DNA of 64,000 nucleotides from Planctomycetota bacterium (GCA_044222185.1 JBGANV010000002.1:160001-224000); one strand, 5' to 3'; positions 34,525 through 51,008 are shown, counted from the first letter of the stretch. Numbers and translations: made by a program. The notes: a model not told the origin generated them from the sequence alone.

Positions 34525-35505
34525 TCACTCCGGTTTGTTCTGCACGAACACCGTCCCGAAGCGACCCTTGATGCAGAGGTTGCCCTGCGTCACTCCCGAG
34601 TCGGCGGGCGACGTCACCTTCACGATGCGATCGTCCTGCACGTGGAGCTCGAGCGCGCAGCCGACGCCGCAATAGGGGCAAACGGTTTCGGTCACCGACT
34701 GCCGCGCGGGATCCCAACGGCCATCGCGACGCAGGTCGAACTCCGCCTTCCCCTGGAGCGCGCCCGTGGGGCACACGGCCACGCAGTTGCCGCAATAGAC
34801 GCAGGCCGACTCTGGAAGCGGCAGCGCCCACTCCGTCGAGATGCGCGCGTCGAACCCGCGCCCCGCTACCGCGATGGCGAAGGTGTTCTGGGCGTCGGTG
34901 CCGCAGGCCTCGACGCATTTGAAGCACAGGACGCACTTGGAGTAGTCGCGCACGTAGAGGTCGTTGTCGACCTTCACGGGCTGGGCGACGGTCTCGGCGG
35001 CCATTCCATCGGGCGCGTGATGATGTCCGGCGCAGCGCCCATCGCGCGCACCGGCGGGCGAAGGCGCCGCGGGCGGACCGAACCGCGACGGATCGGCCCC
35101 GTAGCGGGCGACGAGCGGCGCGAGCGCCGGCGCTTGCGAGAGATCCACGGACGATCCCAGCAACTCGAGTACGAGCCGTCGGCTCGTCCGCACGCGCTCC
35201 GAGTCGGTGAGGATCTTCATCCCCGCCTCGACCTTGCGCGAGCACGACGGCACGAGCGTCCGGCTGCCCGCCAGCTCGACGACGCAGATGCGACACACGT
35301 TCACCGGCGTCAGGTTCTCGGCGAAGCAGAGCGTGGGCGTGTCGATCCCGAGCGCGCGACAACCGTCGAGGATCGTCGAACCCTCGGGAACGGCCACGTC
35401 CTTGCCGTCGATCGTCACGGTGATGGCAGCGCGCTTCGGGGCCTCGGGCGCCGTGGGCGGATGCGATGGCGGCGGCGCGGGCTCGAACCAGATGGGATGA
35501 CTCAT
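34525..35505 (-). CDS. Formate dehydrogenase Fe-S subunit (2Fe-2S, two 4Fe-4S, C-terminal molybdopterin-oxidoreductase Fe4S4 domain)
   Basis: PTLC..CRICVVE..PSC; CVLCFKCVEAC; CVYCGNCVAVCP; TVCPYCGVGC..LCIKGRFG; ATGA overlap. Confidence 0.88.
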   Translation of the reverse strand: MSHPIWFEPAPPPSHPPTAPEAPKRAAITVTIDGKDVAVPEGSTILDGCRALGIDTPTLCFAENLTPVNVCRICVVELAGSRTLVPSCSRKVEAGMKILTDSERVRTSRRLVLELLGSSVDLSQAPALAPLVARYGADPSRFGPPAAPSPAGARDGRCAGHHHAPDGMAAETVAQPVKVDNDLYVRDYSKCVLCFKCVEACGTDAQNTFAIAVAGRGFDARISTEWALPLPESACVYCGNCVAVCPTGALQGKAEFDLRRDGRWDPARQSVTETVCPYCGVGCALELHVQDDRIVKVTSPADSGVTQGNLCIKGRFGTVFVQNKPE

Positions 35506-37337
35506 CGCGCGGCTCCCTTCGCCAGCAACGCCAGTCCGGACTCGACTGCAACCGACGCCGTGTGACCGAGACCGCAGATGGATGCGTCCTTCATGACTTT
35601 CGACAGATCGGCGAGGAGCGCGCGATCGCTGATCTTGGGCGCGGGCGCGGCGCCCGGCGCAAGCCGCGCGAGCGCCTCCTCCTGCCGCACGGTGCCGACG
35701 CGGCACGGCACGCACTGTCCGCAGGATTCATCGCGGAAGAACTGCGCCACGCGGCGGATCAACGTCAGGAGATCGGCGCGGTCGTCGATCACCATCACGG
35801 CGCCCGAGCCCAGTGATGCGCCAAGCGGTCGCAGGCTCTCGGCCGTCAGCGGAACGTCGAGGATCTCGGCGCCAACGAACGTTCCCGCGGCACCGCCGAG
35901 CAGCACCGCCTGGAGCGTCCGTCCATCGGAGATTCCGCCCGCGAGGTCGATGAGCGTTCGCAGCGTCGTCCCCATCTCCATTTCGTAGAGGCCCGGGCGC
36001 GCCACGTTGCCGGAGACGCAGAAGAGCTTCGTCCCCGTGGAGGTCTTCGTGCCGTGGGCGGCGAACGCGGCGCCACCCTCCACGAGGATCAGGGGGACGT
36101 TCGCGAGCGTCTCCACGTTGTTGACGACGGTGGGCTTGCCGAACAACCCCACGTCCGTCGGGTACGGCGGTTTGCTGCGCGGCTCACCGCGCTTGCCCTC
36201 GATCGAGTTGAACAGCGCCGTCTCCTCGCCGCAGATGTAGGCGCCCGCTCCGCGGCGGATCTCCACGTCGAACGCGATCCCGCTGCCCAGGACGTTCGTC
36301 CCGAGCCAGCCGGCGGCGCGCGCCGCGGCGATGGCGGCGTTCAGCCGCGACAGCGCCAGCGGGTACTCACCACGAATGTAGAGCCAGCCCTTCTCGCAGC
36401 CGGTCGCGATTGCCGCGATCGCCATGCCTTCGAGAACGGCGAAGGGATCCCACTCCATGAGGACGCGGTCTTTGAACGTGCCCGTCTCCGACTCATCCGC
36501 GTTGCAGACGAGGTGGTGCGGCCGCGCAGGCGCCGCGGCGACCGCCGCCCACTTGCGGCCCGTGGGGAACGCCGCGCCACCGCGGCCGGCGAGTCCCGAG
36601 GCCGTCACTTCCCCGATCACCGCCTGCGGGCCGATGGCGAGCGCGCGACGAAGTCCCGCCAGGCCGCCGGCCTCGACCCACGCCGCGTGATCGGTGGGAT
36701 TCACGACGCCGACACGACGCAACAGTCGAAGCTCCTTCGCGCCAGCCTGAGGAACGGAGGCCTTCACGGCCGCGAGCCCGGGCGCCGCGGGCATGCGTCC
36801 GGCGACGGCCGCCGCAATCTGATCGGCGTTCGCTGCGCCGAGCGTCGCCGCCGAGCAAGGAGTCCCCGCGCGGATCACCAACGCGGCCGGTGCCATCTCG
36901 CAATGCCCGAGGCACGGCGAGCGATGCCACGCGGCGGTCGCGCCCGCTCGCGGATGACCGTCCTCGCCGAAGTGTTTCGTCATCTGCGCGCAGACGTCCT
37001 CGGCGCCGCGCAGGCGGCAGACGACGTCATCGCAGACGTGCGCGGTGACCGGCGGCGCGGGCGACGTCGCGAGCAACGTGTAGAACGTCGCCACGCCGTA
37101 GGCTTCGGCGGGCGGCACGGTCAGCCGCCTGCAGGCGTATTCCATCGCGCCCTGGGAGATCCAGCCGATGCGGTCCTGGATCGCGTGCAGCACGGGCAGC
37201 AACCGGTGACGCTGCGCGCGCGCATCGTGACCCGAGGACTCGCTGCGCGCGTGCTCGATCGTCTCGCGACCGAGCACCGAGTCGACCGCGGCGCGCTCCT
37301 CCCCCGTCGGTTCCGCTCCAGTGAGATGAAGATCCAA
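35502..37337 (-). CDS. NuoE/NuoF-like fused NAD(H)-binding (diaphorase) subunit
   Basis: CDDVVC..CLGHC; GRGGAAFPTG; CNADESE; GAYICGEETAL; ESCGQCVPCRVG..CGLG. Confidence 0.9.
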   Translation of the reverse strand: MDLHLTGAEPTGEERAAVDSVLGRETIEHARSESSGHDARAQRHRLLPVLHAIQDRIGWISQGAMEYACRRLTVPPAEAYGVATFYTLLATSPAPPVTAHVCDDVVCRLRGAEDVCAQMTKHFGEDGHPRAGATAAWHRSPCLGHCEMAPAALVIRAGTPCSAATLGAANADQIAAAVAGRMPAAPGLAAVKASVPQAGAKELRLLRRVGVVNPTDHAAWVEAGGLAGLRRALAIGPQAVIGEVTASGLAGRGGAAFPTGRKWAAVAAAPARPHHLVCNADESETGTFKDRVLMEWDPFAVLEGMAIAAIATGCEKGWLYIRGEYPLALSRLNAAIAAARAAGWLGTNVLGSGIAFDVEIRRGAGAYICGEETALFNSIEGKRGEPRSKPPYPTDVGLFGKPTVVNNVETLANVPLILVEGGAAFAAHGTKTSTGTKLFCVSGNVARPGLYEMEMGTTLRTLIDLAGGISDGRTLQAVLLGGAAGTFVGAEILDVPLTAESLRPLGASLGSGAVMVIDDRADLLTLIRRVAQFFRDESCGQCVPCRVGTVRQEEALARLAPGAAPAPKISDRALLADLSKVMKDASICGLGHTASVAVESGLALLAKGAAR

Positions 37338-39257
37338 TCAGCGCTCCAGCTTCTCGATGCACACGGCGGCAGCTTTGAATTCAGCGGTGCCCGACTTGGG
37401 ACACGTCGCGTCGATCGTCAGCAGATTCGTCGCCACTTCGTCGGGGAAATGCGGCGTCATGAACGTCAGTCCGGGTCGCAGGGACGCGTCGATGCGCACG
37501 GGCGCGGCGACGCTGCCGCGACGCGAACGAACGCGCACCATCTCGCCGTCGACGACGCCGAGCCTCGCCGCGTCCTCGGCGCACAAATCGACGGTTTCGC
37601 CGCGACGCAGCGGCGATGCGTAGCCAGCGGTCTGCACGCCCGTGTTGTAGTCGTCGAGGCGACGCCCCGTCGTGAGGCGGAACGGGAACTCGGCGTCGAC
37701 GGCCTCGACGGGCACGTGATGCACGACGACGGTGAACGGCGCGCGCGGTCCGCGGACCGGGGTCTCCCACAGGCGGCTGTGCAGGAACAACTCGCCGGGG
37801 TGATCCTCGCTGAAGCACGGCCATTGGAGACCGCGCTCGGATTCGAGCCGCTGATAGCTCATGCCGGCGTGCACCGGGCTCACGGCGCGCAGCTCGTTCC
37901 AGATGCGCTCGGCGTCCGGCGGACCGAAGTCGCGACCGAGTCGACGCGCCAGCTCATGCAGGATCCAGATGTCGTCCTTCGCTTCGCCGGGCGGCGGCAG
38001 CGCGCGGCGCACGCGCTGCACGCGGCGTTCGCTGTTCGTCACCGTGCCGTCGGTCTCGCACCAGCCGGCGGCGGCGGGCAGGACGACGTCGGCCATCTCC
38101 GCCGTCTTCGTGAGGAACATGTCCTGCACGACGAGGTGATCGAGGGATTCGAGGAGATGGCCCGCGTGGGTCTGGTCCGCTTCCGACTGGGCGGGGTTCT
38201 CGCCGATGACGAAGAGCGCGCGCAGCTCGCCGCGCTTCATGGCCTCGAACATGCCCGTGAGGTGCCAGCCGCGCTGCGGCGGGATCTTCGCGCCCCACTT
38301 CGCTTCGAACTTCTCGCGAAGCGGAGCGTTCTCGACGTGTTGGAAACCGGGAAGTCGGTCGGGCAACGCGCCCATGTCGCCGCCGCCCTGGACGTTGTTC
38401 TGGCCGCGCAGCGGATTGAGGCCCGAGCCGTAGCGACCCACGTGTCCGGTCAACAGCGCGAGGTTGATGAGCGAGAGGACGTTGTCGACGGCGTTGTGGT
38501 GCTCGGTGATGCCGAGCGTCCAGCAGATCATGGCGCGGGGCGCCTTCGCGAATGCGTGAGCCGCTTCGCGGATCGCGGCCGCGGGCACGCCCGTCTCCGC
38601 TTCGGCCCATTCCAGCGTGCATGATTCGACCGATGCGTACCACGCGTCGAATCCGTCGGTCGCGCGGGCGATGAACTCGCGGTTCGCCAGGCCCGCCGCC
38701 ACGATCTCACGGCCCATGGCGTTGGCCATGGCGATGTCCGAGCCGACGTTCAGGCCGAGCCAGCGGTCGGCCCACTGCGCCGACGACGTGCGACGCGGAT
38801 CGAATGCGAACATCCGCGCGCCGTTGTGGATCCCCTTCAGCAGATGGTGGAAGAAGATGGGGTGTGTCTCTCGGGCGTTGGATCCCCACAAGAGGATCAC
38901 GTCCGTCTCCTCGATCTCGCGATAGCTCGACGTGCCGCCACCTGCACCAAAGACTGTCGCCAGACCGGCGACGCTCGGTGCGTGTCAAGTTCGATTGCAG
39001 CTGTCGATGTTGTTGGACCCGAACGCGAGGCGCACGAGCTTCTGCGCCGTGTAGTTCATCTCGTTCGTGCCCTTGGAGCACGAGAAGATGCCCGTGGCGC
39101 GTCCACCGCCCTGCGCGATCGCCTTCTTGAATCCCGCCGCGGCGCGGTCCAGGGCCTCATCCCACGTCGCCTTGCGCAGCGGCGCCGAGCGGCCGTCGCG
39201 AACGAGTGGATGAAGGAGTCGGACGTACGGCCTCTGAGTCCGTTTTGATCCAGTCAT
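37338..39257 (-). CDS. Selenocysteine-containing formate dehydrogenase catalytic subunit (639 aa)
   Basis: ORFs 38985..39464 and 37338..38900 are one frame separated by a single TGA (38985-38987) in NIDSCNRT-U-HAPSVAGL; PLRGQNNVQG; LTTGRR. Confidence 0.9.
38956..38972 (-). promoter_or_regulatory. Bacterial SECIS hairpin
   Basis: GUCGCC-GGUCU-GGCGAC starting 12 nt after the UGA; loop and spacing resemble the E. coli fdhF SECIS. Confidence 0.82.
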
Positions 39258-39489: not shown

Positions 39490-42414
39490 ATGCGAGAGCC
39501 TTACAGAGTCCTCGTCTCATCGACGTACATGGACAACGCTCAGCGGCGGGAGTGGGTCCGCCAGGCCATCGAAGCGGCGGGCATGCTGCCCATCGGGATG
39601 GAGCGATTCACGGCCGAGGGCGACCCGGTCGTCGAGACGTGCATCCGCAAGGCGAAGGAGGCGGACCTCGTCGTCGTCATCCTCGCGTGGCGGTACGGGT
39701 GGATTCCCCCGGGACACGAGAAGTCGATCACGGAACTCGAGATCGATGCGGCGGGTGACGTGCGGGCGTTCGTGCTGAACCCGACGGCTCCATTCCATCT
39801 GAGCGACCAGGACGAAGAAGAGGGCCGCGGCGCCAAGCAGGACAAGCTCACGGCGTTGAAGAAGCGCCTGACGAAGAGGACCACGCCTTGCACGTTCGAC
39901 GAGCCGCTCCTCGCCATGCGCGTGCTCGAGTGCTTGAACAATTGGCGACAAGAGAAGGAAGGCCCAGCCCCAGCGGGTGGCGTCACCATCACCACGCCTG
40001 CCCAGGTCGACAAAGCGGCGCTCGCCGCCTACCTCGCTGAAGCCGGGCGTCGCTCGGAGACCGTTCCGCTCATGGGATTCGGCGCCAAGCTCCGCGTCAA
40101 GGTCCGGCTCGATGAGCTGTACGTCCCGCTCACGGCAGTCCCCGACCTTCGCGTGACGGGCGATGGGTTCGGTGACGGCAAGCACGCCAAGTCGAAGATC
40201 GGTCACGCCGACCCCGACATGGACACCCGCCGGCAGATCCGGTTGCTCGACGCGTTCTGGCAGGCCGAGCGCAACGGCAAGCGACGCGGCGTCGTCATCC
40301 TCGGCGATCCCGGATCAGGCAAGACGACGCACCTGCAGCGCCTGCTCCTCCAGATCGTCCAGAAAGGGCCCGGGTCGCTTCAGCTTCCGGCCGACACCAT
40401 CCCGCTGCTGCTTCCGTTCCGTGACGTGGCGTCCGGCGCCGAGAGTTTTCGCGATGCGCTCGTTCCCACACTCGCCAAGTCCTATCCAGGGCAGCCGCCC
40501 GGGTTCTTCGATGCCGTGCTGCGCACGAGTCACCCGCTCTTCCTCCTCGACGGCTTCGACGAAGTCCCCGAGTCCGATCGAGAGAAGGTTGCCGGTTGGG
40601 TCGACTCGGCACTCGACACGTGGAAGGGCGCCCGCATCGTCATGACGTCGCGGTACGCCGGCTACACGAAGAACGTGCGCCTCGGTGCCGACTTCCTCGA
40701 ACTACACCTCTACGCGTTCAGCAGCCCCCAGGCTGACGACTTCATCCGCCGGTGGTGGACGCTCGTGGAGAACGCCGAGCATGCTGATGACCCGGAGCTG
40801 GCTCAGAAGAATGCCGACGCCGGCGCCCTCCGGCTCATCGAACGCCTACGGACACCCGAGCGAGGGTCGGAGCGCGTGCGCGAGCTCGCGACGAATCCGC
40901 TGCTTCTCTCGCTCGTTTGCCTCGTCCACCGCGACCGCGGCGAGCTGCCGAAACATCGCGCCGAGTTGTACGAGTGGTGCACGACGATCCTGCTCGAGCA
41001 CTGGCGAAAGGTGAACCGCCTTCCCGTCACGCTCGGTGCCGAGAAGGCTCGCGAGGTGCTTCAGCCGCTGGCGGCGTACCTCCACGCCGAATCGGGTCGG
41101 ACGCGCGCGTTGGCGACGTCGATCACGCCCATCCTCGAGCCGGAGCTGCGACGCATCCGCTACGACCGCGACGCCGCTGCGTTCCTCCGCACGATCCAAC
41201 ATGAGAGTGGACTTCTGACCGGCTGGGGTGACGGCTCGTTCGGGTTCCTTCACCTGGCCTTCCAGGAGTACCTGACCGCCGGCCACATTCGCGCCAAGGG
41301 CCTGGCCGATCCGACCCACTTCCGCGAGCTCGCCGCCAAGCTCGGTGACAGTTGGTGGGAGGAGGTCATGCGGCTCATGGTGGCGCTGGGCAACCCCTGC
41401 GCGTTCGACCAGTTCATGCCGGCGTTGCTCGCTCAGGACGGCATTGGCGATCGTCAAGTGTTGATCGAGGAACTCCTCAACGAGGCGGCCTCCGTCTCAG
41501 CCGCGCCATTCGTGAACGTGATCGATGCGCCGCCGGGGAAGCAACAGCAGCGCTGGAGTCAGCAGCTCGTGGCGATCACGGCCCTGCGCGCGATCGATCC
41601 GGCTGCCATCGAGAAGCGGCATGCCTCGCTGGCGAAGCACCCCGATCCGCGAATCAAAGCCCTCTTCGCCACCGCGGCGCCGGCCGCGAACGACCGCGTC
41701 GAGATCGCGAAGCCGGGGCTCGTGGCCGTGCGCATCCCGGCGGGCACGTTCGTGATGGGCTCGCCCAAGAATGAACCGGGCCGTGATGACGACGAGACTC
41801 AGCACGACGTCGAGCTGTCCGAATTCTGGATGTCGACGACCCAGGTCACGAATGCGGCGTTCGACCAGTTCCGCAAGACGCACCCTGAAATCCCCGAGCC
41901 TCCGTCCCGAAACGACACCCGCTTCAAGGATCCCCAGCAGCCAGTCGTCGGCGTCACGTGGGACGAAGCGCGCGCCTTCTGCCAGTGGATCGGCGGCGAC
42001 CTGCCCACCGAGTCACAGTGGGAATACGCGTGCCGCGCCGGAACGCAGACGCCGTGGTGGTCCGGGGAGGACGAATCCTCTCTCGACGCCGCCGCCTGGT
42101 ACGACAAGAACGCGAAGCGCGCACCACACCCGGTCGCTCAGAAGGCAGCGAACCCCTTCGGCCTCTTCGACGTCCACGGGAACGTCCGGGAGTGGTGTCT
42201 GGACTGGTTCGGTGCCTATCCGAAGAAACGAACGCCCAACCCGACCGGCCCGCGTGATGGCACCTCCCGCGTCCTCCGTGGCGGCAGCTGCTGGAATGAC
42301 GCGTCGGGGTGCCGCTCGGCGTTTCGCTTCCACTGGTGGCCCGGGAGCCGGTACGTCGTCTTCGGCTTCCGGGTCGCGTTCCCCGCCGCCCCCAGCTTGA
42401 AGTTCGATCATTGA
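39490..42414 (+). CDS. DGR target 1: DUF4062 / NACHT / FGE-sulfatase (C-type lectin fold)
   Basis: RVLVSSTY..SITELE; GDPGSGKTT; FLLDGFDE; FLHLAFQEYL; LPTESQWEYACRAG; NPFGLFDVHGNVREW; RVLRGGS..GFRV. Confidence 0.9.
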   Translation: MREPYRVLVSSTYMDNAQRREWVRQAIEAAGMLPIGMERFTAEGDPVVETCIRKAKEADLVVVILAWRYGWIPPGHEKSITELEIDAAGDVRAFVLNPTAPFHLSDQDEEEGRGAKQDKLTALKKRLTKRTTPCTFDEPLLAMRVLECLNNWRQEKEGPAPAGGVTITTPAQVDKAALAAYLAEAGRRSETVPLMGFGAKLRVKVRLDELYVPLTAVPDLRVTGDGFGDGKHAKSKIGHADPDMDTRRQIRLLDAFWQAERNGKRRGVVILGDPGSGKTTHLQRLLLQIVQKGPGSLQLPADTIPLLLPFRDVASGAESFRDALVPTLAKSYPGQPPGFFDAVLRTSHPLFLLDGFDEVPESDREKVAGWVDSALDTWKGARIVMTSRYAGYTKNVRLGADFLELHLYAFSSPQADDFIRRWWTLVENAEHADDPELAQKNADAGALRLIERLRTPERGSERVRELATNPLLLSLVCLVHRDRGELPKHRAELYEWCTTILLEHWRKVNRLPVTLGAEKAREVLQPLAAYLHAESGRTRALATSITPILEPELRRIRYDRDAAAFLRTIQHESGLLTGWGDGSFGFLHLAFQEYLTAGHIRAKGLADPTHFRELAAKLGDSWWEEVMRLMVALGNPCAFDQFMPALLAQDGIGDRQVLIEELLNEAASVSAAPFVNVIDAPPGKQQQRWSQQLVAITALRAIDPAAIEKRHASLAKHPDPRIKALFATAAPAANDRVEIAKPGLVAVRIPAGTFVMGSPKNEPGRDDDETQHDVELSEFWMSTTQVTNAAFDQFRKTHPEIPEPPSRNDTRFKDPQQPVVGVTWDEARAFCQWIGGDLPTESQWEYACRAGTQTPWWSGEDESSLDAAAWYDKNAKRAPHPVAQKAANPFGLFDVHGNVREWCLDWFGAYPKKRTPNPTGPRDGTSRVLRGGSCWNDASGCRSAFRFHWWPGSRYVVFGFRVAFPAAPSLKFDH

Positions 42415-42435
42415 GATATGTCTCGGCGCGGCGGC
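42259..42435 (+). repeat. DGR variable region VR1 with invariant 3' G/C-rich and IMH-like tail
   Basis: 177-bp inverted repeat of 44190-44366; 14 mismatches, 12 of them within 42290-42361. Confidence 0.88.
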
Positions 42436-42537
42436 AGGTCACGCACGCGGCCGATCCGTCCGTCCAATCCTGCCGCTCAGCCGGCAACTCTGCCGCATCC
42501 GGCCTTCGGTCTGCCGCCTCGTTGCCATCGTCCGGCA

Positions 42538-43545
42538 TCAGAGTGTCATCAAATGGCCGACGCGGGAGGCAACCGAGGCGTCGAGCCGGCGTGACCTCCT
42601 CGCCCCGGCGCGGTGGACGAACTCCCTCGCCATCCCATCGAACGCCCGCCAGCACGACGGAAGCGGCGTGGCCCCAGATCGCGTGATCGCCTGCCCAAGG
42701 GCATGGAGCGTCCCCCAGGTGCTCCGTGCCTTCGCCCAGGGGGCTTTGAGCCGGAGCTGCCGTTCACCCATCAGCCACGCGCCCACCTGATCGCGCCAAC
42801 GCTCGACGCCGCTGCGCTCGTCACCGAACAGGACGAGGTCGTCGACGTAGCGCACATACCCAGGGACTTTCAGGTCGCGCTTCACGTGGTGGTCCAAGCC
42901 CGCAAGGTAGACGTGGGCCGCGAACAACTGACTCGTCAAGGCGCCGATCGGCAACCCGCGCCCAGGCGGCGGCCAGTCGGGTGCGATGCGCGCAGCTCGG
43001 CGAATCGAAACCGGGTCGTAGAAACCGCGGCCCGCGTCCAGGATCACGTCGACGACGCGAAGGAATTCGGCATCGCGGACGCGGCGACGGACGAGGTCGA
43101 TCAACGTGTCGACGTGGACACTGGGGAAGTACGCACGGATGTCCAAGTGCAGGAAGAAGGCGTGCCGCCTCATCAGCTCGACGAGACGGATCACGGCGCG
43201 GTGCGTTCCAAACCCAGGGCGACAGGCGAACACATCGCGTGTGAGCATCGGGAGGAAGACCGGCTCGAGCAGTGAAACGACAGCCGTGTGAACGACGCGG
43301 TCCTCGATCGGCGCGACGGCGATGACTCGGGGCTTGGGGTCGCGGATGGCGCGTGCGCGCCACCCGAGCGGCGCCCACGAGCCCGTTTCCAAGCGCCGTT
43401 GGATCTCGCCCACCTGCTCCTCGCGCCGGAAGAGGAACCACGCGACGTCGGGGCGAAGACGCTTGCCCGCGCAGGTCTTCGTCGCGGCCGCTTCGAGGTG
43501 ATCACGCGTCACGAGCTTCGCGAACAACCCACGAACCGTACGCAT
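42538..43545 (-). CDS. DGR-type reverse transcriptase
   Basis: 335 aa; DPKPRVI..DRVVH; FACRPGFGTHRA; LDIRAYFPSV; GLPIGALTSQ (SQ is the DGR signature); YVRYVDD; no maturase or endonuclease domain. Confidence 0.93.
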   Translation of the reverse strand: MRTVRGLFAKLVTRDHLEAAATKTCAGKRLRPDVAWFLFRREEQVGEIQRRLETGSWAPLGWRARAIRDPKPRVIAVAPIEDRVVHTAVVSLLEPVFLPMLTRDVFACRPGFGTHRAVIRLVELMRRHAFFLHLDIRAYFPSVHVDTLIDLVRRRVRDAEFLRVVDVILDAGRGFYDPVSIRRAARIAPDWPPPGRGLPIGALTSQLFAAHVYLAGLDHHVKRDLKVPGYVRYVDDLVLFGDERSGVERWRDQVGAWLMGERQLRLKAPWAKARSTWGTLHALGQAITRSGATPLPSCWRAFDGMAREFVHRAGARRSRRLDASVASRVGHLMTL

Positions 43546-43571
43546 GCCTCGTCCTCAGGATGAGAAAAAGT

Positions 43572-43637
43572 GCTCCCCCGGACGCTCGGCCGAGGCCTAC
43601 GAGAACGGGGGAGCGAGGGCCCGACGGTGTCGAGCCC
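43572..43637 (-). other. Two adjacent RNA hairpins upstream of the RT (putative DGR spacer RNA)
   Basis: GGGCUCGAC-acc-GUCGGGCCC, then GCUCCCCCG..GUAGGCCUCGGCCGAGC..CGGGGGAGC followed by ACUUUUU. Confidence 0.55.
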
Positions 43638-44052
43638 GCCGGGGTGGAGCCTGCTTGCGGCTGGGGTGGAACTCGTGGTGTCCGCGTGCGACGTTCATCA
43701 GCGCAGATTCGAGGGCGGCGGCCGCGGAGACCATCGGCTCGCCCGCGGCACGGAGGTTCCGGAGGAGCGCGCACGCGTGCTGAACGAATCCGAGGTCCGC
43801 GAGCGTTTTGCGGCGGTCGCCCGACCGCGACGCCGTGCGCGAGGGCAGCATGGCGTCGACGGATGTCCGCAGGCGGTCGGCGCGCTCCTGCAGTTCGTGA
43901 CGTTGGGAGTCCGTGAGCGGCAACGCAGCGCGGTCGAGGACCCAATGGCCGCCGCGCTTGACGCCAGGGAGCCGGCCGGTCCTCAGCCATGCGCGGATCG
44001 TTCGAGCGCTCTTGCCGAGGACCGTGGCGGCTTCCGTGAGGGTCAGTTCCAT
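43597..44052 (-). CDS. Excisionase-type HTH fused to a helical Avd-like domain, probably C-terminally truncated
   Basis: MELTLTEAATVLGKSARTIRAWLRTGRLPGVKRGGHWVL (HTH_17-like) then amphipathic helices; occupies the avd position; C-terminus reads through the hairpin region. Confidence 0.65.
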   Translation of the reverse strand: MELTLTEAATVLGKSARTIRAWLRTGRLPGVKRGGHWVLDRAALPLTDSQRHELQERADRLRTSVDAMLPSRTASRSGDRRKTLADLGFVQHACALLRNLRAAGEPMVSAAAALESALMNVARGHHEFHPSRKQAPPRRARHRRALAPPFS

Positions 44053-44189
44053 TCGCCAGGAATGACGGCGAGAACCGGCAAGTTCTTCCGGGAGCGCTAC
44101 TGCGTGGTCGGCGAATGGCCGGCGCCTTGCCGGCATCGTCGCGCCCGTTTGCCGGTCCGACGGCCGGAAGCGGGCGCACGCGGCTGCCG

Positions 44190-44366
44190 GCCGCCGCGCT
44201 GAGCCATATCTCAATGATCGAACTTCAAGCTGGGGGCGGCGGGGAACGCGACCCGGAAGCCGATGATGTCGTCCCGGTCCCCGGGCCTCCAGTCCCAGCG
44301 ATACGCCGAGCGGCACCCCGACGCGTCATTCCAGTAGCTGCCGCCACGGAGGACGCGGGAGGTGCC
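44190..44366 (-). repeat. DGR variable region VR2
   Basis: Inverted copy of 42259-42435 encoding the C-terminus of target 2. Confidence 0.88.
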
Positions 44367-47300
44367 CTCAGCTGGTCCCAAGGGGTCGGATGTCTGCTGC
44401 GGGTCATAGGGCGCGTACCAGTCGCGGCACCACTCCCCGACGTTTCCGTGCATGTCCTGGAGGCCCCACGGATTGACGTCGCGCTTGAAGCCGACGGGGC
44501 GCGGGCTCCCAGTGAAACCCTTCCCGTACCACGCAACCTTCTTCAACTCCTTCTCATCCGATCCGGTCCACCAGGGCGTCGTCGTCCCAGCGCGGCACGC
44601 GCCTTCCCACTGGGCCTCCGTCGGAAGGTTGCCGCCGACCCAGCGGCAGAACAGCTAGGCCTCCCACCAGGAGACTTGGGTGACAGGAAGCACGTCAGCC
44701 TCCGTCCCGCGTCGCTTGCGAGCGCCAACGAACGACTGGTACTCGCCGACCGTCACAGGTGTTCGTCCGAGTCGGAACGGACTCAGCGTGACGCGGCGCT
44801 GGGGGCGCTCGTTACCCCCGCCTTCGCCCTCCGGACTTCCCATCATGAACGTGAACTGCCTCCCGGTCGGCGGGATCGGGCGTGTGTCGATCGTCGGCCG
44901 CTGCCGGCCTGCGAAGCGCGGCACGGAGTCGAAGAACCGGTCCCGCAACCGGTCGCGGGCCGATGAGCAGCTCCCGACCAGCTTTTCCAAGGCATAGAGC
45001 ACGAACGCCAGGTCTTCGACTTCGACCGCTTCGGGCGAGGTGCCATCGCGTGCAATGACCCAGTCGAGGACGGACTTCGCCAGCGCCTCGTGCTCTGGAG
45101 AGTCTGGCCACAGCGCCAGCAGCCGCGCGAGCCGGTCTCCGTCGCGATCCGGGACCGTCAGGAAGAAGTCGAGCGTGCTCTCGAGGCTCCAACCTTGCGC
45201 ATCGGGGAGGACGGTCAGTGCGAGGTCTCCGTCGGCAGAACGCAAGGCTTCGAGCAGCGGTTTGGAGTCGGATGCGGCGACGAGGCCGGCAAGGAGCCCG
45301 TACGTTCCGCCCCATTGCGCGCCCCATCGGTGCGCCTGCTCCCGTGCGTCGTCGGACTTCGCCTTCGCAGGGATCTTCGCCCCCCAAACCGGGCGACCGC
45401 GGCGATGCAACTCCTCCGCCGCCAGCATCTCGCGGAACGAACGATGCACGAACGACCACGGGGCATGCTCGTCGCCGGCGGGTGCGAGGACGCCAGAGGT
45501 CATGCCGATGTCATGCAGGAAAGTCGTGAAGCTCTGTCCCCAGGGCTTCAGGTGAGTCTCCATCTGCGTGCGGATCTTGGGATCGGAGTCCAGAGCCTGC
45601 TCATAGGCCTCGTAGAGCGCGTCCTGACTCCACGCTTCGCCGCCCGAGGTTTGAAGTTCGAGGGCGAGGATCATCAACGCACGTCGCGCAGCGAGCGGAT
45701 CGGCGACGCTCTTCGGCGGATCGCCGTGACCGCGTTCGAGGAACGTCGTGATCGCTTCGCGGAACAGCTCCACGCGGCGACGCGGAAGGTCGCGACCGCG
45801 AAGCACGAGGTCGGCGAGCATCGTCAGCAGGAGGGGCGAGCCGGCGACTTCGGGCACGCGAAGGGCCGGACGCTGCTGGATCTGGTCCCATACAGCCGCG
45901 GCTCGTTCACCGAGATGATGCGTGAGGAGTTCCTTCTGCTCGGACTCGCCCAGCGGGCGAACCTCGAACGAGGTGAACGTGGGCTCGAAGTCCTTGGGGT
46001 CGAACCCCGCGGGCCGCGAGGTGAACACGATCCGCAGATGCTCGTGCGCAGAGGCAAGCCCGAGGATCGTGTCGCGCATGTCGGAGCGGTCGTCGCGAAG
46101 TTCATCGAAGCCGTCGAGGAGAAGGATGAGTTGACCGGGCCGGGACAGGAGCGTGCGAAGCGCTTCGGCCAGTGCCGTCGAGGCGCCGTCTCCGTGAACG
46201 CGGCTCAAGTCGCGTGACAGGAGATCGAACGCATCAGGTGGCGTGCCGCCGCTCCGGGCCGCAGCCTCCTGCCAACGGACGAGTGGCAGGAATAGCGCCA
46301 ACGGGCCCTCGGTCACTCCGGCATAGTCGTGAACGAGGCGGCGGCAGAGCGTGGACTTGCCGGCTCCCGCGCGACCGATGAGGGCGAGGCGGAATGGCCT
46401 GTCCGCCGGGGCCTGCTTGAGCAGACCGTCGAGGGTCATGGGCGAGGCCCCGAAGACGAAGGCGCGTTCGTGCTTCTCGACGCGCAACGCCTCCATCAGT
46501 GAGCGTTCATCCCTGGCATCGCCCGCCTTCCCGTCCTGCGGTTCGCACCGGCGCTGGGTGAGGAGCGGAACGACCTTCTCGACGGCGAGGTGGAAGCGGC
46601 CACCGACGTGCGCGTGAATCGTGCGGAGGTGCGCCCGATACGTCGTGAGCGCCGCTTCCGGGGTCCATCGAGGTTCGGGGGACGCAGGTGTGCCAGGGGG
46701 GTTGGGTGCGGTCTCGTCCTGGGGTTCGGGCACGGGCGGCAGGCTGCGCAGGTGCGGCTCGAGGTCACGCAGTCGTTTCAGCTCTGCGGGGCGCAGATGC
46801 TCGACGTCTGCAAGGCGGCGCGCCTCGCCGAGAAGTGCCACGCGGAGCTCGATCCCCTGTCCGATTCCATATCCGGCGATCACGCCGAGCGACGTCTGCT
46901 CCGCACCATCGCGGTCCTCCGGCGTTCGCACGAGGGGCCAGATGACTCGCCCGACGCCCGCCAACGCCTGCGGCAGGTCGTCGACGGTCTTCAGGGGGAT
47001 GCGACCGCTTCCACCAGCCGCTGCCGGGTCCCGAGGAGGCTTGACCGTCGGCAGGTCGATGAGTCGGCTCCACGGGAGCCCGAGCTTTCCGAGTGTGGCA
47101 CGCACGGCGCGACCGTCGTCAACATCGGCACACAGCGTCGCAACGTCCCTCCCCCGGTTCGCGATCGGAAGGAGCGGTGCAAGCTCCTTCGGCGACTCGA
47201 CGATGTCCTGGAACATCTCGATGTCGCGGCACGGGGTCACGAAGAAGCCTTGAAAGGGCGTGTGCCGTTCCCACTTGAACGTCCGCTTCACTCCTTCCGC

Positions 47301-47789
47301 GGCGACGAAGACGACGGGAACACCGACGGACAGGGCAAACCCGACCTCGAAGGCGACGTTGGCGTTGGGGCGATCGACGAATGCAATCAGGCGATCCGAG
47401 GCGAGGATCCCATCCTTGACGCCGTCCCAGATGCGACCCTGGTCGTGCTCGCCGAGCGGGACCGTCACTCGCCAGGGTTGATCGGCTTCATCGCGCGCCC
47501 ACTCGAGCGTGGCGGGGATCGTCTCCTGCGACATGTCCCACGCCACGAACACGCGGTAGCGGAGGAGGTCGGCGGCCGAGTCGAAGCCCAGGTCGCAAAC
47601 AAGCTTCTCGGCGAGCGACTCGAGTTTCGCCGGCGAGAGCTTCTTCGCGCGCAGCGCGTTCAGATCCTTCTCGGAGGCTCCGCTGCTCCTGGCGAGCTGG
47701 GCGGTCGTGACGCGCTTGCGCCGCAGGTGCTTCTCCACCTTCATGCGGAGCGCGCGGGATTGCAGGCTCTCCTTCGGATCGTCGGGCAT
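44211..47789 (-). pseudogene. DGR target 2: HTH-like / nucleoside-deoxyribosyltransferase- or TIR-like / NACHT / FGE-sulfatase, with one in-frame TAG
   Basis: PNANVAFEVGFALSVGVPVVFV; GRAGAGKST; LLLDGFDE; FVHRSFREML; VSWWEA*LFCRWVGGNLPTEAQWEGACRAG (TAG at 44655-44657) continuing in frame to VR2. Confidence 0.8.
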
Positions 47790-47887: not shown

Positions 47888-48826
47888 TCAGCGTCGTGGC
47901 GTCGTCGGGCTGCCGCGCGAGTCGGCCTTCGGCGGCTCGTGCTGGCGGATCCAGTCGGAGGGGCGGAGCCATTCGGCGACTTCGGGCTCGGAGCCGTAGC
48001 CGCTGCACCAGTGGATGATGTCGGCGGGTTTGGGGTCGGGGGCGGTGCTGCCCACGAGCAGCGACATGTAGGAGGTCTCGCCGGAGGGGAAGCGGAGGGC
48101 GAGGGTGGTCTCGTCGAGGCGTTTGACCTCGGGGTGGCCCTTCACGAACTTCATCGGGGCGCCGTTGGTGCCGCCGATGGGCATGCCGAGGGTCGCGGCT
48201 TCGTCGAGAAGCTTGCGCTGCCACGACGGGGCGATCTGGATGTACGGGCCGCGGTGGATGCCGAAGTGCAGGTGGGCGGGGTAGTCGCCGTTTTCGGGGC
48301 TGCGATCGGCGCCGATGAATCCGATGGGCTGGCCGCGAGTGACGGGGTCGCCGACGCGGACGGCACGGTCCTTCGCTAGGTGGACGTAGACCGAGCACAC
48401 GTGCGTGAGGTCACCCTCGGGCGGATCGAGCTCGTGCTCGATGACGATCACGTTGCCGAGGTTCCAGTGCTTTTGGCCCGAGCCGTCGATCCACGAGGGA
48501 CTGAAGTCGGAGTAGGTGACGCGTCCCGCGGCGACGCTGCGGACGGGTGTGCGCGCGGGAAGCCAGACGTCCTCGGCGAGATGCCACGAGCCGTCGAAGG
48601 GCGAGCTCTTGTCACCGCGGATGAGGAGGCCGAAGTTGCCCTTGCCGCGAAGGCCGCGGAGGTAGGCGTCGCAGGGGAAGGTGAAGGGTGTGGGGGTGGT
48701 TGTCGCCGGGCGGGTGGCCGGACGACTTTCGGCGTGCGCCTGTGCGGTGAGTGGTGCGCTCGCGAGGAGGGTGAGCACGACGACGAGGATCGCGGGGCAA
48801 CTCGGTTTGATCGTGGAACCGTTCAC
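47888..48826 (-). CDS. Exported M23 family metallopeptidase
   Basis: HLAED (HxxxD); GNVIVIEH; YVHL; AHLHFG (HxH); start uncertain (GTG 48826 or ATG 48943). Confidence 0.8.
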   Translation of the reverse strand: MNGSTIKPSCPAILVVVLTLLASAPLTAQAHAESRPATRPATTTPTPFTFPCDAYLRGLRGKGNFGLLIRGDKSSPFDGSWHLAEDVWLPARTPVRSVAAGRVTYSDFSPSWIDGSGQKHWNLGNVIVIEHELDPPEGDLTHVCSVYVHLAKDRAVRVGDPVTRGQPIGFIGADRSPENGDYPAHLHFGIHRGPYIQIAPSWQRKLLDEAATLGMPIGGTNGAPMKFVKGHPEVKRLDETTLALRFPSGETSYMSLLVGSTAPDPKPADIIHWCSGYGSEPEVAEWLRPSDWIRQHEPPKADSRGSPTTPRR

Positions 48827-48964
48827 GGGGAGGTTTGACGGCGCGCGGTTGGGATGCGGGCCGGAGCGGTGGACGGTTTTGGTCGAGGTAGGAAACAGGG
48901 ATGTGGCGAGGGGATGTGGCGGCCGTGGGCGGGAGTTGGTCATCGCGTGGCGAGTCGGGAGCGG

Positions 48965-49319
48965 CGCCGGTTGGACCGCGCGGGACGCGCGGCGATCCGG
49001 CCAGCCCCCGCCGCGACGGCGGAGGGCTGGCGCTCCTTCGCTTCGCGGCGGCGTCGTGCGCATTCGGTGCGAGTCGGGCGAAGGCCGCGTCGGAGCGCCG
49101 GTCGACGCGTCGCGCGAGCGGCGGTGCGACCGGCAGGATCGGACGACCGAAGCGAAGCGGAGGCGTCCGGGCCCGCTGGCGTCGACACGCCGGGGCGCAT
49201 TTGAACATCATGCCGACGTCGGTGATCGGGTACGGGATCCCGATCCACGCCGGTTGGACCGCGCGGGACGCGCGGCGATCCGGCCAGCCCCCGCCGCGAC
49301 GGCGGAGGGCTGGCGCTCC
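48965..49319. repeat. Same non-coding repeat family as 31125-31598, reverse orientation, 283-bp period
   Basis: Identical 72-bp cores at 48965-49036 and 49248-49319; reverse complement aligns with 31125-31480 across the unit. Confidence 0.88.
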
Positions 49320-49320
49320 G

Positions 49321-49482
49321 TCACTTCGGATAAAAGGCGAAGGCCGCGATCGCCAGGCACGCGACAGCGGTGAGGCTGATCACGAACCAGGTGAACTTCG
49401 AAACACCCTCGCGGCCGTAGTAGTGCTCGTAATGAGGGTGATGCACTGAGGACGATCGAACCGGCTGGGTTGGTTGCGTCAT
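49321..49482 (-). CDS. Small single-TM protein (53 aa)
   Basis: AGGAGG RBS; MTQPTQ..HHPHYEHYY..FTWFVISLTAVACLAIAAFAFYPK. Confidence 0.65.
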   Translation of the reverse strand: MTQPTQPVRSSSVHHPHYEHYYGREGVSKFTWFVISLTAVACLAIAAFAFYPK

Positions 49483-49721
49483 CTCTCTCTCCTCCTGCGT
49501 CGGTGAATGAGTGATGTGACGAGAGCGAGGAGCTCTCACCGCATCGGCGTCATCCGTGCCGACGCGATACGGCGAACGGTGCGATTATCGCCGCAGATCT
49601 AACGGCTGTGCGACGACTTTCTTCCCAGTGAATTCCAGCGAATTCGTCGCAGCCTCAGTGCGCGGCGCTTCAACTCGAAGCGGCACAACGGAGTTGAGTG
49701 CAGCGCAAGTGAGTCCAACGC

Positions 49722-51008
49722 TCACAGAAGACCGCGAGCGCGCGCGGCCTCCTGCAGCGACGTGCGAAACGCCGGATCTGCAATGGCGATCAGGTCCTGC
49801 GCGCGTTCACGCAGGCTGCGACCGTGAAGCTGAGCGACCCCCCATTCGGTGACGACGTAGCGCACATCACCCCGCGAAGTCACCACTCCGGCGCCCGGTT
49901 TCAGCCGCGGAACGATGCGTGAGACGGTGGTTCCCCCGCGGGGAGTCGCCGTCGACGGCAGCGCGATGATGGGCTTGCCTCCGCGGCTTCTTGCGGCACC
50001 GCGAATGAAATCCACCTGCCCGCCGATGCCGCTGTACAACCGCTCGCCGATGGAGTCGGCGCAAACCTGGCCCGTGAGATCCACTTCGATCGCCGCGTTG
50101 ATCGCCACCATGTCGTCGTTGCGCGCGATCACGAAGGGATCGTTCACGTACTCGATCGGGTGGAACTCCACGTCCGCGTTGCGATCGACGAACGCATACA
50201 GCTCGGGCGAGCCGACGGCGAACGTGACGATGATCTTGCCGCGGTGAAGCGTCTTGCGCGCACCGGTGACGACGCCGCGCTTCACCAGCGGGATCAGGCC
50301 GTCGCTGAACATCTCCGTGTGGATGCCGAGATCGCGATGATGGCCCAAGTTCGCGAGCACCGCGTTGGGAATCTCGCCGATGCCCATCTGCAGCGTGGCG
50401 CCATCCTCGATCAACCCCGCGATGTGGCGACCGATGCGATCGAACACGTCGCTCGAATCGCGTCGCTCGAGTGACGGCAACGACGTGTCGACGGGAACGA
50501 GTGCCGCGAAGCGATCGACGGGCACGGAGTTGGGCCCCGCCGTCCGCGGCATGCGCGGGTTCACTTCCGCGATCACCGTCCGCGCGCACTCGACCGCCGC
50601 GAAGTTGAAGTCGACGGCGACGCCGAGGCTGCACTGGCCCGCGTCATCCGGCGGCGACACCTGCACGATCGCCACGTCGAGCGGCATGCCGCCACCCCGA
50701 AACAGCTCGGGGATCTGCGAGAGGAAGATGGGCACGAACTCCACCCGTCCTTCGGCGACGGCCTCGCGCATGTTGGCGCCGATGAAGAACGTCTTCGTGC
50801 GGAAGCGGCCCGCGTGCTTGCGATCGACGTGAGGCGCAACGCCGAACGTGAGGCCGTGGACGAACTCCAGGTCGCGAAGCTCGTGCACGCGGTCCATCAG
50901 CGCCTGCATGACGGTGACGGGCTGCCCCGCATTCGACCCGACGTAGATGCGATCGCCTGCGCGAACGAGGCCGGCGGCTTCAGCGGGAGTGAGGGTCGGT
51001 GGCGCCAC
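49722..51008 (-). CDS. Acetyl-CoA hydrolase / 4-hydroxybutyrate CoA-transferase family
   Basis: TLQMGIGEIP; LGIHTEMFSDG; SGIGGQVDFIRGA; YVVTEWG. Confidence 0.92.
   Translation of the reverse strand: MAPPTLTPAEAAGLVRAGDRIYVGSNAGQPVTVMQALMDRVHELRDLEFVHGLTFGVAPHVDRKHAGRFRTKTFFIGANMREAVAEGRVEFVPIFLSQIPELFRGGGMPLDVAIVQVSPPDDAGQCSLGVAVDFNFAAVECARTVIAEVNPRMPRTAGPNSVPVDRFAALVPVDTSLPSLERRDSSDVFDRIGRHIAGLIEDGATLQMGIGEIPNAVLANLGHHRDLGIHTEMFSDGLIPLVKRGVVTGARKTLHRGKIIVTFAVGSPELYAFVDRNADVEFHPIEYVNDPFVIARNDDMVAINAAIEVDLTGQVCADSIGERLYSGIGGQVDFIRGAARSRGGKPIIALPSTATPRGGTTVSRIVPRLKPGAGVVTSRGDVRYVVTEWGVAQLHGRSLRERAQDLIAIADPAFRTSLQEAARARGLL

Follow-up and report, generated by a model that had tools for sequence, protein, structure and literature searches.

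Diversity-generating retroelements (DGRs) operate through a cycle in which the RNA of a template repeat is reverse-transcribed, bases are misincorporated opposite adenines and the resulting cDNA replaces the variable region (VR) of a target gene (PMC5758913). The template is indispensable in this cycle and the accessory protein Avd is required in the Bordetella phage model system (PMC5758913). Four classes of accessory gene, Avd, HRDC, MSL and CH1, were named by Wu et al. 2018, who found two targets in 13% of DGRs (PMC5758913). The subject of the present analysis is a locus at positions 39490–47789 of a 64,000-nt stretch of DNA from a Planctomycetota bacterium (GCA_044222185.1, JBGANV010000002.1:160001-224000), hereafter the window. 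The locus holds a reverse transcriptase (RT), a helix-turn-helix (HTH) gene of the HTH_17 family and two convergent genes for receptors resembling NOD-like receptors (NLRs), referred to as targets 1 and 2. The locus is judged likely to be a DGR that was inactivated recently, with both variable regions left frozen.

DGR-diversified domains of the FGE type have been linked to conflict systems (Kaur et al. 2020, PMC7159879). Cassettes in which one DGR serves two targets that join a signal transduction ATPase with numerous domains (STAND) to a domain of the C-type lectin (CLec) kind, some of them with N-terminal effectors, were published by Dore et al. 2024 (PMC10907252), who proposed a role as antigen sensors for such proteins. 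Systems of this kind are already in print, and novelty of the locus, first noticed in a preliminary description made from the sequence, is not supported; we regard the locus as a further, decayed case of this published class of DGR-diversified NLR-like sensors. Decay too has been described there. In some loci the RT or the template has been replaced by repeat arrays, intact and degraded variants coexist, and DGR parts including the template repeat have been lost in Thiohalocapsa loci (PMC10907252).

A close likeness in target design is to DGR 3 and DGR 6 of Thiohalocapsa sp. PB-PSB1 and to the 'clade 5D' DGRs, which are cellular, have two target genes and combine a central STAND NTPase (NACHT or nSTAND1), a single C-terminal CLec/FGE domain with the VR and varied N-termini; this likeness is a match of target architecture to the published description (PMC10907252). 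Unlike in clade 5D, template and Avd are missing from the window, one target carries a stop codon and the N-termini are a DUF4062 and an unassigned domain, and the HTH_17 gene goes unmentioned for clade 5D in sections 7 and 12 of that paper (PMC10907252). DGR 7, 4 and 5 of Thiohalocapsa PB-PSB1 resemble the window in that a core part, template or RT, has been lost while the targets remain; there the loss came through arrays of repeats similar to miniature inverted-repeat transposable elements, or through transposons (PMC10907252), whereas the window has a clean internal deletion that leaves 109 nt between HTH gene and RT. The DGR of Bordetella phage BPP-1 (mtd-avd-TR-brt) and that of Treponema denticola TvpA follow the logic proposed for the window, with an RT, a spacer, mutagenesis at adenines and a CLec fold that carries its VR C-terminally. 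Their targets are a phage tail fibre and a surface lipoprotein, respectively, in contrast to the two convergent, cytoplasmic-looking STAND sensors and the extra HTH gene found here, and the window lacks both template and Avd. Close in cassette design are Engelhardtia mirabilis Pla133 (locus L035, NZ_CP036287.1) and 24 further template-bearing loci, which have in common with the window the HTH_17 gene, the spacer RNA, a sequence motif on the VR side and two convergent NACHT-type targets with FGE tips. Unlike the window, these loci keep Avd and a template of about 140 nt with adenine-specific mismatches, and their N-terminal effector domains appear to vary from locus to locus.

Variable regions, reverse transcriptase and adenine pattern

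The 3' ends of the two target genes are copies of one 162-nt block. VR1 (42259–42420, + strand) has its variable sites at 42290–42361 and the stop codon of target 1 at 42412–42414, and VR2 (44205–44366, − strand) has variable sites at 44264–44335 and a stop at 44211–44213. An independent repeat search returned the pair as an inverted repeat of 42151–42438 against 44187–44474 (288 nt, 81%), and pairwise alignment revealed a sharp rise in identity at 42259/44366, the FGE sequence upstream being much more diverged. The copies differ at 12 sites in 72 nt (42290, 42323, 42329–42331, 42337, 42346, 42347, 42352, 42356, 42358 and 42361), all within the last 52 codons of the target. These sites touch 10 codons, each of which changes its residue, and 11 of the 12 lie at codon positions 1–2. 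The 21 nt past the stop hold two further differences, at 42421 and 42425. The near-identical 3' ends and the tally of differences had been reported in the preliminary description and were recovered to the letter, peptides included. At the 12 sites copy 2 (VR2) has A seven times and G five times while copy 1 (VR1) has A once, which argues against either copy being the template of the other.

The RT gene between the targets (42538–43545, − strand) is full length (335 aa), matches RVT_1 and carries the motifs IGALTSQ and YVDD. Its best match in the PDB was 8ub7 (E 7.9e-25), which we take to be the RT of Bordetella phage BPP-1, in whose alignment IGALTSQ stands against IGSLTSQ; next came the RT of a group II intron, at 1.7e-11. 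The match to phrog_1423, a PHROG of phage RTs, had an E value of 9.5e-69, and all 52 residues that are invariant among 23 aligned RTs are kept. The protein database contained 1348 homologues at E <= 1e-20, the nearest 56–60% identical. No closer relatives were found when genome contigs were searched with the single RT, and metagenome contigs yielded only one RT, 25% identical. The genome as a whole has one RT of the DGR type.

Relatives were collected by searching species-representative genomes with a profile of the 23 aligned RTs. This resulted in 49 loci from Planctomycetota, Acidobacteriota, Myxococcota and others, among them the complete Engelhardtia mirabilis Pla133 genome, of which 39 (L021–L058 and L065) were examined and ten with RT identity <= 37% were left out. 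Of the 39, 25 have a repeat, situated 60–420 nt upstream of the RT, whose sequence recurs at the 3' end of at least one FGE gene. Across 44 pairs from these 25 loci, selected for identity of at least 75% and at least 3 mismatches with at least 60% at A in that same interval, 622 of the 695 template/variable mismatches fall at adenines of the RT-proximal copy. The RTs that adjoin these template repeats are 41–59% identical to the one in the window in 24 loci and 34% identical in L057. Adjacency of homologues to template/variable pairs was used, in place of an RT tree, as the functional test of DGR membership, and by it the RT falls with the DGRs and not outside them. Together with the [LIV]GxxxSQ motif and the 8ub7 match this upholds the earlier identification of the gene as a DGR RT.

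As the template of the window itself is absent, adenine specificity was read via homologous templates. Twenty-two templates were aligned, from loci chosen by eye for clean adenine-biased pairs, plus L017; L022, L028, L043, L050, L051 and L054 were left out of the alignment because their pairs were rich in gaps or in mismatches away from adenines. These template repeats and the block share the same 5' edge. Ten of the 12 variable sites lie on columns where A is in the plurality, although such columns make up 27 of 122 (hypergeometric P = 3.0e-6), and the remaining two, 42330 and 42361, align to C columns. Most variable positions thus fall, by this indirect reading, on adenines of template homologues, and the refuting condition set in the preliminary description, that they match adenines in no such homologue, did not arise. 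The shared block exceeds what chance would give, since its 5' edge matches the template edges and its sites match template adenines.

In an alignment of 29 target C-termini, consisting of the two copies of the window and 27 of 35 candidate frames (eight were dropped as the longest frame was not the FGE frame), all 10 variable residues stand on non-conserved columns, with conserved scaffold residues (W, RSA, PG and GFRV) in between. A structure model of the last 240 residues of target 1 (pLDDT 91.5, pTM 0.90), in which the variable residues lie within residues 200–224, matches human FGE (E 5e-21) and TvpA 2y3c (TM-score 0.83, root-mean-square deviation 2.8 Å). With the FGE-sulfatase domain match of target 1, this bears out the C-type-lectin fold that had been assigned to the variable regions. 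Strain-level variants of the sensor tip were sought among proteins with the last 160 residues as query; nothing exceeded 60% identity, and the match at that level was the second copy of the window itself. Taken on sequence, a DGR origin of the RT and of both 3' blocks is well supported.

Apparent loss of the template and the Avd gene

A search for the template repeat by blastn (word size 7) in the assembly (7,084,855 bases, 16 contigs, 93.8% complete) returned only the two copies. An adenine-wildcard scan of the same assembly, in which any A of a candidate counts as a match, gave no template, the best stretch reaching 102/142 with 54 exact, and the repeat search within the window revealed no third copy of the block. 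Avd was equally absent, as neither bAvd nor 23S_rRNA_IVP was matched in the locus, and genome searches with PF22296 and with the Engelhardtia Avd protein found none. On contig C11 of the same genome, at about 46287–47191, there is an inverted FGE-like pair with weak similarity to VR1 (63–70%; 64% over 227 nt); these stretches are probably ordinary FGE paralogues.

The layout of the relatives was determined by tblastn with the Engelhardtia HTH and Avd proteins and with the FGE tip and the RT of the window as queries. It recurs as FGE target (+), HTH gene, Avd-like gene, template repeat, RT and FGE target (−). An HTH gene was found upstream of the RT in 34 of the 39 relatives and an Avd match between the two in 27; both flanking targets were seen in 20, many contigs ending too early to show both. 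Avd-like open reading frames (ORFs) of two relatives matched Pfam bAvd with E values of 8e-9 and 0.01, both below the 40-bit cut-off. The HTH_17 gene, of excisionase/MerR-like type and about 200 aa in length, is a conserved member of the cassette between the upstream target and Avd (for example L035:7751-8341 and L017:7279-7896), and is not one of the four accessory classes named by Wu et al. 2018 (PMC5758913).

In the window this gene is truncated. It spans 43597–44055 on the − strand (HTH_17 E 4.2e-11) and encodes 152 aa as compared to 196–205 aa in two aligned relatives. Homology of the protein stops after GHHEFHPSRK at about residue 135, the conserved part corresponding to residues 1–137 of the 196-aa Engelhardtia homologue. 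The gap from HTH gene to RT is 109 nt, against 404–825 nt in relatives with a full-length HTH gene. Of the 'HTH/Avd-like' label that the middle gene had been given, the HTH half stands and the Avd half does not, no Avd model having matched. As HTH homology breaks off, spacer homology then begins and the gap is shortened, the end of the HTH gene, Avd and the template appear to have been deleted. The missing stretch, relative to the other loci, comprises the last 50–60 HTH codons, the whole Avd gene and the whole template repeat. The junction lies at approximately 43645–43665, where HTH codon ~135 directly abuts the retained spacer, and there is no inserted element.

Deletions of a similar kind were seen among the relatives. 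L046, L065 and L053 (three of 39) are also without Avd and template repeat, two of them with a truncated RT. HTH residue 106 is only 38 nt from RT residue 35 in L046 (8646–9001), HTH residues 15–53 abut RT residue 182 in L065 (1863–1979), and L053 (7481–9001) has neither Avd nor template. In each of the three, two target ends remain that are near-identical and whose differences are clustered. Smaller HTH/Avd deletions, with the template kept, occur in L028, L030 and L039.

The spacer that separated the lost template from the RT is retained at 43546–43657 (− strand), and alignment and covariation mark it as an RNA of conserved structure. The spacers of 13 relatives can be aligned with it from an AGCAGGC motif through a GTAGGCC...CGGCCGAGCGTCCGGG hairpin to the RT start, and the truncated HTH ORF now ends within it, taking in the upstream part as coding sequence. 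RNAalifold was applied to 12 chosen sequences (the window, L021, L024, L025, L026, L030, L031, L032, L036, L038, L048 and L017), four spacers with poor alignment near the RT start being left out, and gave 24 pairs, 13 of them with compensatory changes; the copy in the window fits this fold. On its own the window spacer folds at −61.7 kcal/mol (z −2.6). No Rfam family was matched in 42300–44400. The RNA probably corresponds to the spacer of the Bordetella DGR, which primes cDNA synthesis.

The motif TTCGATCATTGAGATATG forms the last 18 nt of both blocks, at 42403–42420 (+) and 44205–44222 (−). Motifs of the GATCWTWGAGRNRTG type are found 3' of VRs across the clade (20+ loci) and are absent 3' of templates, and both copies in the window are therefore of the VR type. 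In many cases half-repeats containing GATC come before the motif and GC-rich palindromes after it. By analogy with the initiation of mutagenic homing (IMH) sequence and hairpin of BPP-1, it is a candidate target-recognition element. In a limited literature search the HTH_17 cassette gene, the covarying spacer and the VR-side motif all went unmentioned, the spacer and the motif not having been specifically sought; the three are not claimed as new, as supplements of published work may cover them.

Contigs of other sequencing runs were used to judge whether the junction is real. The runs that hold the locus are bioreactor and activated-sludge metagenomes. Record 5 of run X1 (42391–44234) bridges the junction with 0 differences, X1 being possibly the window's own sample. 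Record 21 of X5, from a different study, covers 43444–43858 (415 nt, 6 differences) with about 200 nt on each side of the junction, and record 12 of X3 (43138–43688) bridges it marginally. The junction sits between the HTH coding sequence and the spacer, outside any repeat, which makes a repeat-driven mis-join unlikely. In X3, X5 and X6, all of one study, position 44000 is joined to 47764 with 30 other letters between; this may be a form without VR2 and target 2 or a chance join, and target 2 is present on further contigs from these three runs. The VR2 core (44235–44336) is thinly covered among the X1 contigs listed, a gap that proves nothing and was left unused. Two joints in X1 with 21-letter sides were set aside as probable chance matches.

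Target genes and surroundings

The four genes stand in the order given in the preliminary description, target 1 (+), RT (−), HTH_17 gene (−) and target 2 (−), as confirmed by ORFs and domain matches. Pfam matches likewise agree with two NACHT/STAND targets that differ in their N-termini. Target 1 (39490–42414, + strand) is intact and consists of DUF4062 (E 6.4e-19), NACHT (E 2.6e-13) and FGE-sulfatase (E 1.2e-50); its longest ORF starts at 39256, the start given earlier being 39490. Target 2 (44211–47789, − strand) has NACHT (E 4.8e-13) and an FGE/CLec domain behind an N-terminus with weak HTH and deoxyribosyltransferase-like matches. Both NACHT matches exceed the Pfam cut-off, with P-loops GDPGSGKTT and GRAGAGKST. 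The N-terminus of target 2 had been labelled HTH plus deoxyribosyltransferase/TIR-like, labels that are not retained as the Pfam matches behind them are sub-threshold (Nuc_deoxyrib_tr at 20.1 bits, the cut-off being 28.8; HTH_26 at E 0.014).

A single in-frame TAG at 44655–44657 interrupts target 2 inside its FGE domain, so VR2 lies beyond a stop codon. The FGE part before the TAG is formed by residues 980–1043, and Pfam FGE positions 12–100 lie before and 104–254 after it. Past the TAG the frame is open for 147 codons up to the stop at 44211–44213 and still encodes FGE (E 5.7e-29); in the source protein collection the distal piece is called as a separate 111-aa protein, P0137.

PADLOC returned 0 families for either target protein, and neither is thus filed under a characterised defence family. 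The sensor-switch-effector model of the preliminary description draws no support from these results and would be plausible for these NACHT proteins by analogy with bacterial NACHT/Avs proteins. The neighbouring genes at 35502–38900 and 47888–51008 are of metabolic or housekeeping type and encode a NuoF-like flavoprotein, a molybdopterin oxidoreductase, an M23 peptidase and an acetyl-CoA hydrolase/transferase. No defence family was found among these flanking genes, and the cassette lies outside any recognisable defence island.

Readings of the locus and their meaning

The favoured history begins with an ancestor that would have carried a target (+) with its VR, the HTH gene, Avd, the template repeat, the structured spacer, the RT and a reversed second target with its own VR. 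Each VR would last have been rewritten by adenine-mutagenised cDNA from one template, since lost; a single lost template explains both the shared block and the confinement of the differences to it. An internal deletion would then have removed the HTH end, Avd and the template, fusing HTH codon ~135 to the spacer. With the template gone, and with it Avd, which this clade would also need, retrohoming could no longer take place and the two sensor specificities would be frozen. Target 1 may still serve as a sensor of fixed specificity, while the target 2 protein would be without about two thirds of its lectin domain. The locus in this account records past diversification. It is not a working diversifier as it stands, because the stretch with template and Avd is deleted and one receptor has a premature stop. 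The preliminary picture, in which both receptors were wired to one hypervariable sensor template, is not supported, given the absence of template and Avd, the deletion seen by comparison with 39 loci and the stop in target 2.

Several observations weigh against inactivation, or against its being recent. The RT, with 52/52 invariant residues, and the spacer RNA are intact, which is unexpected if the element is long dead, and an assembly of 93.8% completeness in 16 contigs leaves room for a template on unassembled DNA. About 29% of catalogued DGRs are without an accessory gene (PMC5758913), so that loss of Avd alone is no proof of inactivity. Strains of other studies share the junction at a divergence of about 1–3% in the RT, among the matches listed, and the deletion is therefore not extremely recent; despite that age, 0 non-variable sites differ between the VRs. 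Among the same listed matches the FGE parts of both targets differ by 5–10% between studies as compared to 1–3% for the RT. The TAG, finally, is evidenced only from data that are probably of the window's own sample. An intact RT and spacer and the lack of ordinary substitutions between VR1 and VR2 fit a recent loss but would equally fit an unseen template. Owing to the differences between studies, the 44000–47764 join and the intact RT and spacer, recent inactivation is held to be likely and no more certain than that.

The explanation that competes most directly is a working two-target DGR whose template, and perhaps Avd, acts in trans from another site of the genome, from DNA that went unassembled or from a different replicon. 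The intact RT and spacer, variable regions without decay outside the variable sites and the incomplete assembly would all be accommodated, and templates 'elsewhere in the genome' are mentioned for some systems by Kaur et al. (PMC7159879). We nevertheless consider it improbable, as two methods failed to reveal a template in 7.08 Mb, all 25 templates detected in relatives lie <= 420 nt upstream of the RT (the filter being confined to that interval), the very interval that is deleted here, and the genome has one DGR-type RT, no Avd that could be found and a stop in target 2. Somewhat less probable still is an artefact of assembly, by which a true genome with intact HTH gene, Avd and template repeat and no TAG was skipped or mis-joined around three repeats. 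The genome looks metagenome-derived, short-read graphs tend to break at repeats of about 160 nt, and the VR edges are where the X1 contigs do break. The junction, however, is outside any repeat, with HTH coding sequence on one side and the spacer on the other, two studies each supply a separate Logan contig that spans it (X1 record 5 and X5 record 21), and similar deletions are present in three relatives.

Two further explanations are given very little credence. Copy 2 (44205–44366) could now act as template for VR1, co-transcribed with the HTH gene and the RT, since it lies upstream of both on the same strand and in the same order, has A at 7/12 differing sites against 1/12 in copy 1 and, being beyond the stop codon, resembles a non-coding template. 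Its G at five of the 12 differences is nevertheless unexplained by adenine mutagenesis, it carries the motif typical of the 3' side of VRs and not of template repeats, it occupies the position of the upstream VR of relatives, about 550 nt from the spacer rather than adjoining it, and the frame past the TAG is still a good FGE domain. An origin without any retroelement is placed equally low. Inverted paralogues can convert each other, and gene conversion that homogenised the 3' ends followed by positive selection on 10 codons would account for all 12 changes altering a residue, yet the block edges equal the template edges in relatives, the sites coincide with template adenines (P = 3e-6) and a DGR RT with its spacer lies between the genes, in a layout shared with real templates in 25/39 relatives. 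Recent inactivation of a DGR through loss of Avd and template remains the preferred reading.

Internal deletions between HTH gene and RT have occurred in the window and separately in three of the 39 relatives, leaving an RT remnant or an intact RT, together with a pair of differing sensor tips that would be frozen. It is conceivable, though we think it unlikely, that this lineage repeatedly fixes a useful receptor specificity by losing Avd and template, perhaps under selection. If so, the intact RT and structured spacer in the window, shared by the strains of two studies, would hint that the RT-spacer unit keeps some function after diversification stops.

The locus adds one more case, in a wastewater-type bacterium, of DGR-diversified NLR-like sensors. 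On the favoured reading it would show such a locus just after diversification stops, with target tips that differ only at what were adenine sites, the RT and the spacer RNA preserved and the template gone. It calls for caution in annotation, as an RT and paired variable regions are insufficient for calling a DGR active. The HTH_17 gene, the covarying spacer RNA, the motif confined to VRs and the repeated Avd-template deletions may in turn aid the modelling of DGR RNA and of target recognition.

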